Shown here: positions 13,274-31,968 of the stretch, piece after piece
Numbering within the stretch: the stretch's first letter is position 1
Layout of the letters: each line of letters opens with the position of its first letter
Assembly (NCBI GenBank): GCA_001029675.1
Contig: CP011210.1
Coordinates: 64,193 to 128,192, forward strand
DNA length: 64,000 nucleotides
Reading direction: 5' to 3'
DNA from: Candidatus Beckwithbacteria bacterium GW2011_GWC1_49_16
GTDB taxonomy: Bacteria; Patescibacteriota; Microgenomatia; UBA1400; CG1-02-47-37
The notes under the pieces: model-generated
What the model was told of the DNA's origin: nothing
Seen by the model: the letters and a program-made list of their open reading frames with translations, nothing else
Databases searched by the model: none
Program-made: the position numbers and the translations under genes

Positions 13274-13413
13274 CCTTTAGGGTGTGAAGCCATTGTCCCC
13301 ACCTAAGTGTGCCAATTTTTGGCGGGGGTGAGAAGGCTTTTAAACTCGCGGGAACCAGGCGTGATTCCTGGGCTATGCCGTAGCTGTTACAGCCAGAAGA
13401 CCGGCCTTAGAGG
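13274..13413 (+). ncRNA. Cobalamin (B12) riboswitch
   Basis: Core GGGAA-CCAGG-CGTGATT-CCTGG-GCTATGCCGTAGCTGT followed by B12 box AGCCAGAAGACCGGCC. Closing P1 is CCTTTAGGG(13274)/CCTTAGAGG(13413); P2 is AAGCC/GGCTT. Confidence 0.8.
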
Positions 13414-13442
13414 GGGTAAAGCAGTCATTTCCCGAGCAGGAA

Positions 13443-27684: not shown

Positions 27685-28362
27685 ATGGCTAAATCTGCCC
27701 AACGGTTGGAAGCGAGACGGCTACGACGGCAAGGCTACAGCATTAACGAGATCGCCTCAAAGGTGACAATATCTAAACGAACTGTAAGCAGGTGGTGTAG
27801 AGATATTGTGTTGAATAGGCGACAGAAGAAAATTTTGTGGGCGAGGGCCAAATCTAAATACGCGATTAATTTTAGAAAATACCTTGAAAGAAAAAGTTTA
27901 AGAACCAAAAACAAAATTAAAACCCTTAGGGTAAAAGGGATAAATAAGATTGGGAGTTTGTCCGAAAGGGAACTATTTGTCGTTGGTGCCTCTCTGTATT
28001 GGGCGGAAGGATTTAAAAAAGACACGAGAATCGGTTTTGCTAACTCTGATCTGGATATGATTAAGTTGTTTATTAGGTGGTTAACGAAGTGCCTAAAGAT
28101 TACCAAAGATAATTTGACTTTTTGTGTAACCGTCAATGCTTCGTATAGAAGAAAAATTGCTGAAATTGAGCGGTATTGGGTAAAGAGTTTAGGCGTTAGT
28201 AGAAAGCAATTCACCAGGCCGTTTTTCCAAGAAGTTAAATGGAGGAAGAAGTATGAGAAACCGGAGGAATATCATGGCGTGTTAAGGGTAAGGGTAGTTA
28301 AGAGCCTGGATTTGTTGAGAGAGGTTAATGGTTATATTGAAGGGTTGAGGCGAAGTGTATAG
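27685..28362 (+). CDS. HTH plus LAGLIDADG-like domain protein (paralog of 23928..24608)
   Basis: LRRQGYSINEIASKVTISKRTVSRWC; VGASLYWAEG; FANSDLDMIKLF; YW...LG..R.QFT.P shared with the paralog. Confidence 0.7.
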   Translation: MAKSAQRLEARRLRRQGYSINEIASKVTISKRTVSRWCRDIVLNRRQKKILWARAKSKYAINFRKYLERKSLRTKNKIKTLRVKGINKIGSLSERELFVVGASLYWAEGFKKDTRIGFANSDLDMIKLFIRWLTKCLKITKDNLTFCVTVNASYRRKIAEIERYWVKSLGVSRKQFTRPFFQEVKWRKKYEKPEEYHGVLRVRVVKSLDLLREVNGYIEGLRRSV

Positions 28363-28384
28363 CAATTTGGTAAAATACTTGTGC

Positions 28385-28457
28385 GGCAGGGTAGCTCAGT
28401 TGGTGGAGCACGGGATTCATAAACCCGCGGTCGCGAGTTCGATCCTCGCCCCTGCTA
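28385..28457 (+). tRNA. tRNA-Met (CAU), probably elongator
   Basis: Acceptor GGCAGGG/CCCTGCT, D-arm GCTC/GAGC, anticodon loop TTCATAA, T-arm GCGAG-TTCGATC-CTCGC. TGGTAAAAT -10 upstream. Confidence 0.88.
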
Positions 28458-28928
28458 CTAGGAAGCCTTTTTAATTTCCTGATGATCGGGCCAGACGGGG
28501 CGAGTCATTTTTTCCCACCAGTAAAACTGATTGCCTTTCTTAAAACTCATCTTGGCTAGAAATTTTTCCTCGTTTGAATCAGGGCGAGCCAGCCAGTCAA
28601 TGTCGTCAATCCCGAGTTTTCCCAATCTTTTTTGGCATTCGGCAAATAAGGCCTCGTCAACGCCTACGTCTTTATCTTTAGGCAACACCATAATGTTTTC
28701 GCCCATGGCCCAGGTTCTAAACATTACCCGACAAAAAAGAAAACCAACAATTTGTCCGTCTTTGTTCGCTACTAATAAGATGTCGTCGTTTTTTTGCTTG
28801 AGCCAGGCGGTTAAATACTTTTGATCGTAAAAACCGGTTTCACCCACTTGAAAGTCCTGGTTCAAAACCCCTGGTTTATAAATCTGGTCAATATCTTGTT
28901 CGGTTAAATCCCGAACCACAATCTCCAT
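28458..28928 (-). CDS. GNAT-family acetyltransferase
   Basis: LLVANKDGQIVGF, degenerate acetyl-CoA loop V.P..KDVGV, and F..KMSF. Confidence 0.65.
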   Translation of the reverse strand: MEIVVRDLTEQDIDQIYKPGVLNQDFQVGETGFYDQKYLTAWLKQKNDDILLVANKDGQIVGFLFCRVMFRTWAMGENIMVLPKDKDVGVDEALFAECQKRLGKLGIDDIDWLARPDSNEEKFLAKMSFKKGNQFYWWEKMTRPVWPDHQEIKKAS

Positions 28929-28938
28929 ACCAAGATGA

Positions 28939-29247
28939 TTATACCCTTTTGAGGGGCACCTGGGACAGCTTGGTAAGTTCTTCCTGGTTGTCGTTTGGAG
29001 CCGTTTTGTTTCTGGTGATTTTTGAGCATTTGTCGCACTGGTGGAAGATAATCGGTTTGCCTGATTTTATCTGTAGACCAATGGGTGGCATCAGCCCGCC
29101 GCAGTCGGCGGCCCGGTCGCCGGGAGTCAGCTCGTCGACGTGTTTAGAATAGAGGCAATTAGGGCAGTGGTTGGTGTAGCCGGAGCCGCGGACTTTTTGG
29201 CCGCAGTGAGCACAGGTGAAATTTTCGGTGACTTTGACAAAAGCCAT
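28939..29247 (-). CDS. RNHCP-domain zinc-binding protein
   Basis: FTCAHCG...YTNHCPNCLYSKHVD..PGDRAADCGGLM...HQCDKC. Confidence 0.9.
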   Translation of the reverse strand: MAFVKVTENFTCAHCGQKVRGSGYTNHCPNCLYSKHVDELTPGDRAADCGGLMPPIGLQIKSGKPIIFHQCDKCSKITRNKTAPNDNQEELTKLSQVPLKRV

Positions 29248-29261
29248 TTTGGTGATAGAAT
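29234..29261 (+). promoter_or_regulatory. Sigma70 promoter for the leader-tRNA-Trp-trpS transcript
   Basis: TTGACA (29234) and extended -10 TGATAGAAT (29253-29261). Confidence 0.7.
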
Positions 29262-29286
29262 AGCACAAGTTGAAAAGTTAATTAAA

Positions 29287-29449
29287 CGCGACGATCCGGA
29301 GGGTTGGAACCGGGGAGCGGACTCTAATCAAGTACGGAGGCAAAACCGTAAAAAGACAGCAGCGTATGTTGCCATAATCGGATAAAGTACGTGTCATAAG
29401 AGAACCCTCGTTTGACCATTTACTGTTGTGGCAAAGCGAGGGTTTTTTT
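29287..29449 (+). ncRNA. T-box-like leader RNA (ultrashort stem I, UGG in apical loop, no T-box antiterminator) ending in a strong terminator
   Basis: CGC-GACGA-TCCGG-AGGGTTGGAA-CCGGG-GA-GCG forms a kink-turn stem I. Downstream hairpins ACGG/CCGT and GCAGC/GTTGC. Terminator AACCCTCGTTTG...CAAAGCGAGGGTT with T-run. Confidence 0.6.
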
Positions 29450-29452
29450 GTT

Positions 29453-29528
29453 AGGCGCGTAGCTTAGTTGGTAAAGCACTTGTCTCCAAAACAAGCGAGC
29501 GCAGGTTCGACCCCTGCCGCGCCTGCCA
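29453..29528 (+). tRNA. tRNA-Trp (CCA)
   Basis: Acceptor AGGCGCG/CGCGCCT, anticodon arm CTTGT-CTCCAAA-ACAAG, T-arm GCAGG-TTCGACC-CCTGC, GCCA end. Confidence 0.95.
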
Positions 29529-29557
29529 CTTTGACAGTTATATCAATTAGTTAAATA

Positions 29558-30571
29558 ATGAAAGAAAATATGAAAAATATAAAACGAGTTTTATCCGGCA
29601 TCAGAGCCACCGGCAGGTTGCATTTGGGCAACTACCTGGGCATGGTCAAAGGCATGCTGGAGTTACAAGATAATCCGGGCTACGAGATTTTTTACATGGT
29701 AGCCGATCTTCATTCGATGACCACGCCGTACGACCAGAAAACCTTGGCGTCAACGGCTAGGGAGGTGGTATTAGACTATCTTTCTTGCGGTCTAGAGCCT
29801 GACAAAAGTGCGGTTTTTCTTCAGTCGGATTTAGCCGAGCTCCATACAGAACTGATGTTTTATCTGTCCACGGTAGTGACTGTTGCCCGGATGCAGCACC
29901 TGCCGACATTTAAAGAAAAAGTTAAACAATATCCCCAAAATGTGACCATGGCGTTGTTAAACTATCCGGTGCTGATGGCGGCGGATATTTTGATTTATAA
30001 ATCGTCTGACGTACCGACGGGCATAGATCAAGAGCCGCACTTGGAAGTGGCCCGGGAAATCGCCCGGAAGATGAACGAGGCGTTTGGCACTGATTTTCCC
30101 GAACCGAAGCGTTTTGGAACTCGCGGCGAGTACGTGCCGAGCTTAACCGATGAGGGCAAGATGAGTAAATCTGTCGAGGGCAGCTATATCCAGTTGACGG
30201 ATGATTTGGAAACGATCAAAAAACGGCTGGCAGCAGCGCCGACGGATAGTGGCCGCGGCCAAGCCGTGCCGACCGCAGGCGGCGTGGCCAATCTGCTTAC
30301 CCTGGTGGAGTTGTTTGAAGGCAAGGAGAAGCGCAAGAAGTATGAGAAGCAGTATGTTACAAGCGGCATCCGCTATGGCGAGTTGAAAACTGAGCTGGCC
30401 GAGGCTATCTACCGCGATCTTAAGCCGATTCAGGAAAAGAGGCGGGAGCTTGAGAAAAAGCCCGACTATGTGGAACAGGTGTTAAAAGACGGAGCGGACA
30501 AGGCCAGAAAGATTGCCCAAAAAACCATCGACGAAGTCAAAACCAAAATGGGGCTGAAAGGCGGATTATGA
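29558..30571 (+). CDS. trpS: Tryptophan--tRNA ligase
   Basis: SGIRATGRLHLGNYLG, YPVLMAADIL, DQ.PHLE and KMSKS. Confidence 0.97.
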   Translation: MKENMKNIKRVLSGIRATGRLHLGNYLGMVKGMLELQDNPGYEIFYMVADLHSMTTPYDQKTLASTAREVVLDYLSCGLEPDKSAVFLQSDLAELHTELMFYLSTVVTVARMQHLPTFKEKVKQYPQNVTMALLNYPVLMAADILIYKSSDVPTGIDQEPHLEVAREIARKMNEAFGTDFPEPKRFGTRGEYVPSLTDEGKMSKSVEGSYIQLTDDLETIKKRLAAAPTDSGRGQAVPTAGGVANLLTLVELFEGKEKRKKYEKQYVTSGIRYGELKTELAEAIYRDLKPIQEKRRELEKKPDYVEQVLKDGADKARKIAQKTIDEVKTKMGLKGGL

Positions 30572-30618
30572 GATTTTGCTGGTGGCAGGAACGATATTTA
30601 TGGCGGGCTAAAATGTAG
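30568..30618 (+). CDS. trpL: Trp leader peptide MRFCWWQERYLWRAKM (attenuator)
   Basis: 16 codons with 3 Trp, including tandem WW. ATG overlaps the trpS stop (ATGA). Lies upstream of a terminator and trpB2. Confidence 0.8.
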   Translation: MRFCWWQERYLWRAKM

Positions 30619-30642
30619 CTTGAGTTTTTATTATTAAACTTT

Positions 30643-30667
30643 AACCCCGCCAACAAGCGGGGTTTTT
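30643..30667 (+). terminator. Attenuator terminator upstream of trpB2
   Basis: AACCCCGC-CAACAA-GCGGGGTT plus T-run. Alternative antiterminator pairing: TGGCGGG (30601) with CCCGCCA (30646). Confidence 0.8.
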
Positions 30668-30684
30668 GAAAGGAGGTGATAATC

Positions 30685-31968
30685 ATGAATATTCCACAAA
30701 GATTTTTAAACCTAAACTACTATTTGCAAAAATACTTGGGCGAGTTGCCGCCGCCGCCACTTCATCCGGCAAGTAGGCAGCCGGTGGGGCCTGAAGATTT
30801 GACGCCTTTGTTCCCTATGGAACTAATTAAACAGGAAGTGTCTGTGGACGAGTTTGTGGACATACCTGATGAAGTCAGGGAGATTTATAAGCTTTATCGG
30901 CCCAGCCCCTTAATCCGGGCTAAGCGCTTGGAAAAAGCTTTAAAAACCCCGGCCCGAATTTACTACAAATACGAAGGGGTCAGCCCGGCCGGAAGCCACA
31001 AATTAAATACCGCCTTGGTCCAGGCTTATTACTCTAAAAAAGAAGGGGTTAAGCGTTTGGTGACCGAGACCGGCGCCGGCCAGTGGGGATCGGCCCTGGC
31101 GCTGGCGACCAAGTTTTTTGGCCTCAAGTGTCTGGTTTACATGGTTAAGATTTCTTTTGAGCAAAAGCCTTACCGGCGGGTGGTGATGGAGCTGTTTGAT
31201 GCTAAGGTGGTTCCCAGCCCGTCAAAAAAAACGCGCGTCGGTAGAAGCTTTTTAAAGCAATACCCCCGGACGCACGGCAGTCTCGGCATGGCGATTGCCG
31301 AAGCGATCGAAGTGGCAGCGGGTGATGAGGCTACCAAGTACTCGCTGGGATCGGTGTTAAACCATGTACTGCTTCATCAAACTGTCATCGGCCTGGAAGC
31401 CAAAGACCAGTTTAAGGCGTTGGGCGACGAGCCTGACGTGGTCATCGGCTGCTGCGGCGGGGGATCGAACTTTTCCGGCCTGGCCTTTCCGTTTCTGGTG
31501 GATAAGCTGTCTGGTAAAAAACCCAACCGGCGGTTTGTGGGAGTGGAGCCAAGCTCGTGCGCCTCAATGAGTAAAGGGGAATATCGCTATGACTTTGGCG
31601 ATACGGGTCAGCAGACACCGTTACTTAAAATGGAGACGCTGGGGAGTGATTTTGTGCCACCGCCGATCCATGCAGGGGGCTTACGCTATCACGGCATTGC
31701 CCCAACCTTGGCCTTTTTGCACCAGAAAAAGTTGGTTGAGGCCAAGGCTTATGATCAAGTCAGTGTTTTCAGAGCGGCACAGGAGTTTGCCCATAGCGAG
31801 GGGGTTATTCCGGCGCCGGAGTCAGCCCATGCGATTAAGGCGGCAATCGATGAAGCTCTACGCTGCAGGAGACAAAGAAAGGCGGAAACGATTATTTTCA
31901 ACCTTTCCGGTCACGGTCTTTTGGACCTCAAAGGCTATGAAGATTTTTTGGCCGGGAGTTTGAGGTAG
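30685..31968 (+). CDS. trpB2: TrpB2-type tryptophan synthase beta-like PLP enzyme
   Basis: [46 protein letters not shown] and NLSGHG. Strong SD AAGGAGGT. No trpA adjacent. Confidence 0.93.

Follow-up and report, generated by a model that had tools for sequence, protein, structure and literature searches.

Within the window (the whole 64,000-nucleotide stretch of DNA analysed here), a promoter-like site, a structured leader, a terminator, a tRNA-Trp gene and trpS follow one another on the forward strand at 29234-30571, in the order that a first-pass annotation had described. The sigma-70-type promoter-like site, TTGACA-16-TAGAAT with a TG (29234..29261), has 11/12 consensus matches, and resembling sites are also found upstream of homologues of the leader. 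We infer that transcription starts near 29268. On the reverse strand an RNHCP-domain gene (28939-29268) diverges from the leader, with its 5′ end overlapping the -35 box; genes of this type adjoin the leader at many loci of the family described below. Downstream of the leader lies tRNA-Trp(CCA) with G73 (29453..29528). The genome contains two tRNA-Trp genes, and the other, located elsewhere, has its own promoter-like site. An uncertain second promoter-like site, again with 11/12 matches, is found between tRNA-Trp and trpS (29531..29559); among relatives its TTGACA is retained at loci L120 and L137 and reads TTAACA at L123. The trpS-type ORF (29558..30571) has close homologues in 35/41 genomes and, from sequence motifs and context, we take it to be the tryptophanyl-tRNA synthetase gene.

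The leader itself is a series of hairpins, all on the forward strand. The first of these (29287..29319) is an ultrashort stem I of 33 nt, CGC-GACGA-TCCGG-[AGGGTTGGAA]-CCGGG-GA-GCG, with a K-turn-like GA/GA motif and, as had been noted in the first-pass annotation, UGG (29305-29307) in the apical loop. It is followed by a miniature stem II-like element (29320..29333), which covaries in the family and has no stable fold of its own in the window leader (0 kcal/mol). Stem IIA (ACGG/CCGU, with an F-box-like CCGUAA) and a predicted IIB pseudoknot occupy 29334..29362. In this pseudoknot the IIA loop is predicted to pair with the segment immediately 5′ of the next hairpin, and just 2 clear IIB pairs are found in the window leader itself. 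Next comes a further conserved hairpin, H4 (29363..29391), whose UGU/AG internal loop is invariant. A weak hairpin that we call the H5 remnant (29393..29416, about -6 kcal/mol) contains the 5′ strand of the final terminator and is a candidate antiterminator. The terminator-like hairpin at 29400..29449 ends in U7 and has a predicted energy of -24.8 kcal/mol. It was not among the matches of a consensus terminator scan, probably because its inner loop exceeds the loop limit of the scan. The segment 29393-29452 folds at z -7.0 and the whole leader at -61.3 kcal/mol, z -4.2.

A motif drawn from the region 3′ of stem I was used to search for homologues. This identified 62 loci in species genomes and at least 118 in metagenomes, representing at least 147 distinct loci. 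Covariance models find members in 12/14 genomes of the same taxonomic family and in 56/150, 47/150 and 5/150 genomes at the level of order, class and phylum, respectively. In an alignment of 51 homologues the helices of stem I, stem II, IIA and H4 covary, with 95% of cells paired and a covariation score of 0.441, vs 0.165 when shuffled. Both helices of stem I are 97% paired, with two-sided changes in 7/8 pairs; IIA is 100% paired and H4 99%, the latter with two-sided changes in 3/7 pairs. The IIB pairing averages a run of 3.80 bp (n=81), vs 2.85 bp with permuted partners, a value that 0/500 permutations attain. An alternative pseudoknot pairing, helix 6, was rejected, since it was 83% paired and had no two-sided change.

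These homologues include complete T-boxes, which share the search motif with the window leader, and we have shown that the leader is the 5′ domain of a Microgenomates T-box family with an ultrashort stem I, as had been suspected from its first hairpin. The covariance models R1 and R2, built here, score the window leader at 96.6 and 93.5 bits, values that hold by construction since the window is in both training sets. Independent of training, it shows 93% identity to L104, and the motif is shared with complete members. The base of stem I has an invariant GA on the 5′ side and an A on the 3′ side, between two covarying helices, a pattern that marks a probable K-turn. Stem II, which was searched for an S-turn, amounts to a hairpin of only 3-4 bp whose loop is rich in purines. 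By the same kind of sequence comparison, the family appears to have a IIA/B pseudoknot with an F-box. H4 is a conserved hairpin that is not among the described parts of T-boxes, and its internal loop is common to members of different specificities. The Rfam T-box model, to which the first-pass annotation had looked for confirmation, does not recognize the leader: no Rfam family falls on it, and RF00230 has no match at E up to 10 in 28000-31000. In our hands RF00230 matches only the Tyr paralogue, at 48 bits, below its 93-bit cut-off. Resemblances to SRP, raiA, c-di-AMP, SAH and twister RNAs were dropped after the complete T-box homologues had emerged.

Which codon does the stem I loop present? 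The first-pass annotation had raised the possibility that a strict register would make GGA (Gly) the specifier. This does not agree with the family, where UGG followed by a purine is found in 137/139 motif loci with enough upstream sequence, among the matches listed. Paralogues carry other codons in this loop: CAC upstream of hisG, hisS or tRNA-His; CGC upstream of argH-type lyases; UAC upstream of tRNA-Tyr; CCC or CCU upstream of ornithine cyclodeaminase or a class II synthetase; and AAC upstream of class II Asp/Asn/Lys-type synthetases. The His and Arg loops share the register codon-purine-A-stem, and the same register in the window leader gives UGG. A Gly specifier (GGA or GGG) was further rejected because the U before GG is conserved and the genes that follow are related to Trp. 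In addition, C or U occupies the N of the antiterminator in 116/117 cases, whereas Gly would need A, as base 73 of tRNA-Gly is U. Judged by these comparisons, UGG and not GGA is the specifier of the window leader. For His (10/10 cases) and Tyr (3/3) the N of the antiterminator is paired with base 73 of the neighbouring tRNA; for Trp the match is Watson-Crick in only 17/26.

The tRNA genes behind family leaders have some features of their own. Behind complete leaders (e.g. L048, L039 and L044) tRNA-Trp has A73 rather than G73 in 18/26 cases, while behind antiterminator-less leaders G73 is found in 20/20. Two types of trpS occur in the order, at about 70% and 35% identity. In 38/65 tRNA genes downstream of family leaders (L026, L027 and L154 among them) an ATG lies at most 8 nt from base 73, and 20 of these starts open ORFs at least 80 aa long; leaderless mRNAs could thus arise by tRNA processing. 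A gene of the Asp/Glu/hydantoin racemase family often sits between tRNA-Trp and trpS (L026, L027, L030 and others), just a fragment of it being found at L003.

Several members depart from the common architecture or context. The genome of the window also carries a complete Tyr T-box (L233, G000:C1:374025-374353, reverse strand) that has no terminator inside stem III and precedes a second tRNA-Tyr and a 276-aa ORF. Two His elements, L277 and L319, precede an aromatic amino-acid lyase gene that is histidine ammonia-lyase-like, a degradative enzyme and an odd target for a starvation sensor. In His members such as L265, L268, L270 and L319 the terminator is wired differently: the T-box bulge itself forms a GGACC/GGUCC hairpin, a U-tract comes next, and another long terminator lies beyond it. 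Finally, L283, L297, L298 and L350 are minimal Trp T-boxes without IIA/B and H4, in which hardly anything separates stem I from stem III and the antiterminator.

The closest known relatives, by description rather than by alignment, are the actinobacterial translational ileS T-boxes, in which the specifier lies in the apical loop of an ultrashort stem I. Like these, the family has a short stem I that lacks the elbow-binding double T-loop, a K-turn-like base, a stem II, and a IIA/B pseudoknot with an F-box-like sequence. Unlike these, it is found in Patescibacteria, is terminator-based, carries a Trp specifier (with His, Arg, Tyr, Pro and AAC paralogues), and has a miniature stem II and the extra H4. 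The ileS T-boxes have an Ile specifier and act by Shine-Dalgarno sequestration, whereas the window leader has a UGG loop, a U7 terminator and a tRNA gene downstream, and has neither antisequestrator nor antiterminator. Complete members of the family resemble the class I T-boxes of RF00230 in having RRRxG-stem III-AA, a UGGN-ACC antiterminator and a terminator. They differ from these in having no long stem I or double T-loop, in a terminator-like cassette inside stem III, in that many members precede a cognate tRNA gene, and in that 29 members are without the discriminator. PMC7583486, which names the Nocardia farcinica and Mycobacterium tuberculosis ileS T-box structures, describes the discriminator as a core that is essential and universal in T-boxes, and states that terminator-based T-boxes generally need a long stem I.

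The window leader has neither the purine string of stem III nor the UGGN-ACC discriminator: inspection of the sequence between aptamer and terminator found no such antiterminator, in agreement with the first-pass annotation. It would function as the 5′ half of such an element does, but for want of the discriminator it falls outside the definition of a T-box. This is not an isolated case. Among 239 distinct elements, 197 have a UGGN-ACC antiterminator, 29 clearly do not and 9 are too short to class. Thirty-three had been flagged as antiterminator-less, of which four were left out (L069 is masked, L118 is interrupted, and L283 and L298 have an antiterminator). The antiterminator-less elements have Trp, His, Tyr and AAC specificities and come from seven families (f1, f21, f30, f31, f35, f42 and f60). 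On a tree of the aptamers, which rests on about 115 columns, the antiterminator label changes 14 times, vs 26 for shuffled labels, so these elements are clustered and yet arose several times. Only this label was used from the tree, as several His and Arg members are marked Trp among its specificity labels. A cognate tRNA gene lies directly 3′ of 23/29 antiterminator-less members vs 45/179 complete members (within 480 nt), a comparison that counts kin as if independent.

Within the family the losses take three forms. Form B retains both the stem III hairpin with its U-tract (T1) and the final terminator (T2), and seven loci apparently have one common junction. Form C retains T1 alone. In form D, to which the window leader, L112 and L175 belong, the start of stem III is joined to T2 and T1 is deleted; the terminator at 29400..29449 is the homologue of T2. 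Compared with L104, L154 and L027, the deletion junction lies near 29402, with similar CUCGUUU stretches on both sides. These alignments show that the window leader lost its antiterminator by deletions. The 5′ domain is kept in all 29 clear cases, with an altered 5′ end in L120 and a reduced H4 in L288 and L289.

Has the leader decayed, as the first-pass annotation allowed? The comparison with the other form D loci is informative here. The aptamer of the window leader is identical at 99/107 positions to that of L112 and at 98/106 to that of L175, which is about as conserved as the tRNA (70/73 and 69/73). The terminator region (47/59 and 48/58) and the 5′ spacer (34/47 and 33/47) are less similar, flanking proteins are 64-72% identical, and four-fold sites are near saturation, with identities of 22/59 (trpS) and 14/23 (the RNHCP-domain gene) against L112 and 12/24 (flanking gene) against L175. 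In summary, the aptamer is 93% identical and flanking synonymous sites 37-61%, so it is improbable that the window leader is merely a relic. Provided that the three loci inherited their deletion from a common ancestor, selection looks to have acted on the aptamer since the discriminator was lost. Recombination of leaders between genomes could mimic such conservation, though spacer and terminator drift faster than the aptamer, which argues against a very recent transfer.

A decayed T-box is nevertheless the strongest rival explanation that we consider, if an unlikely one. Under it the terminator would be constitutive, the second tRNA-Trp nearly silent or leaky, and trpS transcribed from the promoter-like site at 29531. 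Several observations suit decay: the window terminator is predicted in both states of the leader, the H5 remnant is far weaker than the terminator it would oppose, the deletions are nested with similar stretches at their flanks, and the genome has another tRNA-Trp. Second tRNA-Trp-like matches occur in five relatives (G001, G006, G008, G378 and G405), while the leader-linked gene is the sole copy found in G004, G009, G297 and G391 by a pattern search of incomplete genomes. Besides the conservation of the aptamer, the retention of the 5′ domain throughout the clear cases and the repeated loss, enriched before tRNA genes, speak against decay.

Could the aptamer be selected for something other than control in cis? 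The terminated RNA of 180 nt might be a trans-acting sponge of tRNA-Trp, or H4 might bind another ligand (e.g. a protein) that is the true target of selection. The leader's own promoter, strong terminator and conserved aptamer would fit this, as would an H4 internal loop that does not vary with specificity. However, wherever context was read, motif loci precede Trp-related or tRNA genes, which is the expectation for action in cis, and we regard this as the most improbable of the explanations.

Our preferred reading, which we hold at somewhat less than an even chance, is that a Trp T-box has here been reduced to its 5′ half, without the charge-sensing antiterminator, and that this half likely binds tRNA-Trp via UGG and lowers expression of the second tRNA-Trp gene. 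In this mechanism tRNA-Trp would bind the UGG loop, the bound tRNA would lock the aptamer and H4 and favour the terminator, and plentiful tRNA-Trp would turn the second tRNA-Trp gene down. As the other tRNA-Trp gene has its own promoter-like site, the leader-linked copy would be free to be regulated. One argument against this reading comes from the complete members: most of them lie in front of protein genes, and if any bound tRNA turned expression off, induction under starvation would be counteracted there. Two published statements also count against it, that the discriminator is essential (PMC7583486) and that complexes of stem I alone with tRNA last about 4-5 s (PMC6197855).

How might H4 control termination? 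The cassette inside stem III, T1, was found in 110/162 complete members. It begins with UCC, complementary to the GGA of H4, in 80/135 cases, vs 3/66 generic terminator-like hairpins of this genome. A transient helix that captures the 3′ strand of H4 and the base of T1 is predicted in 85/96 complete and 16/28 antiterminator-less members, and is the predicted ligand-free default in 96/108 and 15/27, respectively. Members with a longer H4 shift the pairing partner accordingly (4.78 of 6 pairs, n=18, vs 3.94, n=100). Once T1 has been passed, the next segment is predicted to re-pair into a long stem III (-7.29 vs -4.27, 0/200) and H4 to re-form. When H4 is locked, predicted nucleation of the terminator rises from 0.24 to 0.55 in 108 complete members and from 0.07 to 0.55 in 27 antiterminator-less members; the antiterminator-less folding sets include the three form D loci, with the final terminator standing in for T1. 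On these models, in most members a transient helix that needs an open H4 is predicted to block T1, and the H4 lock to free it. The pairing between the H4 strand and the T1 base in complete members was no better than with permuted partners (82/500).

Folds of whole leaders at transcription snapshots, computed without pseudoknots, are mixed. L154, L169 and L216 switch toward termination with the lock and L025 and L173 respond the opposite way; rows L123 and L115 were left out because their arm lengths were mismatched. We tentatively propose, with rather less confidence than for the local reading, that Microgenomates T-boxes are two-gate devices, in which the classical gate for uncharged tRNA is joined by a stem III terminator that closes once tRNA locks H4, and that several lineages kept only the H4-lock terminator gate, as discriminator-free riboswitches by which a tRNA would repress its own gene.

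The response could also have the opposite sign, with more readthrough when tRNA is bound. Alternatively, polymerase could pause at T1 and at the final hairpin, long enough for a short stem I to bind tRNA; in either case free, mostly uncharged tRNA would be reported. This would suit the starvation induction of the hisS, trpS and class II synthetase genes behind some antiterminator-less members, and both the re-pairing into a long stem III and the folds of L025 and L173 go in its direction. In PMC6197855 stem III is proposed as a pause site. On the other hand, the antiterminating helix is already the default without ligand in nearly all the complete members folded, so a ligand is unneeded for it. 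We consider this alternative improbable, a little more so than decay.

In the window leader T1 is gone, and the weak H5 remnant, perhaps with a contact from the stem I loop, would be all that opposes the final terminator. An H5-type hairpin holds the 5′ strand of the terminator in all three form D loci, with differing registers. Folded from H4 onward, the window leader is predicted to go from 0.00 to 0.64 terminator with the lock. For the whole leader the terminator is predicted at 0.98-0.99 with or without a tRNA-like lock, in the two snapshots nearest termination, folded without pseudoknots; the terminator of L112 is likewise unaffected, and L175 differs at one snapshot only. Since only the weak H5 remnant opposes the terminator, the control range is probably small and set low. 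The idea of the first-pass annotation that tRNA abundance switches the gene off is thus upheld at the level of family folding, through a different helix, and is not reproduced by the whole-length folds of the window leader.

The helix that the first-pass annotation had favoured joins the stem I loop to the terminator. GAGGGUU (29299) is indeed complementary over 7 bp to AACCCUC (29403), at -9.6 kcal/mol as a free duplex, and a version of this contact, in which the loop pairs with AACC(CUC) of the H5 loop, holds the terminator open and is displaced by tRNA-Trp, has to be weighed. AACC sits in the H5 loop in 3/3 form D loci, so the helix may act as a local contact, and the mean over antiterminator-less members is matched by just 8/500 permutations. 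As a general mechanism it is not supported. In 73 complete members there is no covariation (460/500 permutations), and a helix of -6 kcal/mol or better is found in 6/19 antiterminator-less rows, all close kin with near-identical loops (the three form D loci, L104, L154 and L169), and is missing from L003, L027 and the T1-only rows. Moreover, AACCCUC is needed anyway by the terminator, whose own 3′ strand (29438) likewise reads GAGGGUU, and when the leader is folded in its free state, the partner of the stem I loop is stem II. We think it quite unlikely that this displacement operates, more so than a response of opposite sign.

If the preferred reading is true, this would be an RNA-only feedback on tRNA abundance, an OFF-type T-box without the universal discriminator. 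It would also illustrate the tuning of second tRNA copies in bacteria that depend on a host and have small genomes. The family also provides natural matched pairs with and without the antiterminator (Trp, His and Tyr) that are comparable in one in vitro transcription assay. A literature search for T-boxes in Microgenomates or the candidate phyla radiation, before tRNA genes, or truncated, covered titles and the openings of abstracts, with two major surveys and the TBDB tables outside its scope; within this the antiterminator-less form was not found. What this work adds is the class without an antiterminator and, as a prediction, the gate in stem III.

Two further regulatory elements were annotated in the window. 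A cobalamin riboswitch at 13289-13423 (forward strand) scores above the Rfam cut-off. Overlapping the stop of trpS is a Trp leader-peptide attenuator (30568..30667, forward strand), whose peptide of 16 codons includes 3 Trp, a WW pair and a third. It has a GGCGGG/CCCGCC antiterminator followed by a terminator, with a weak match to the Rfam Trp_leader family (E 0.25), and the gene 3′ of it is tryptophan-synthase-beta-like, with a PALP domain. A similar ORF starts after trpS at L025.
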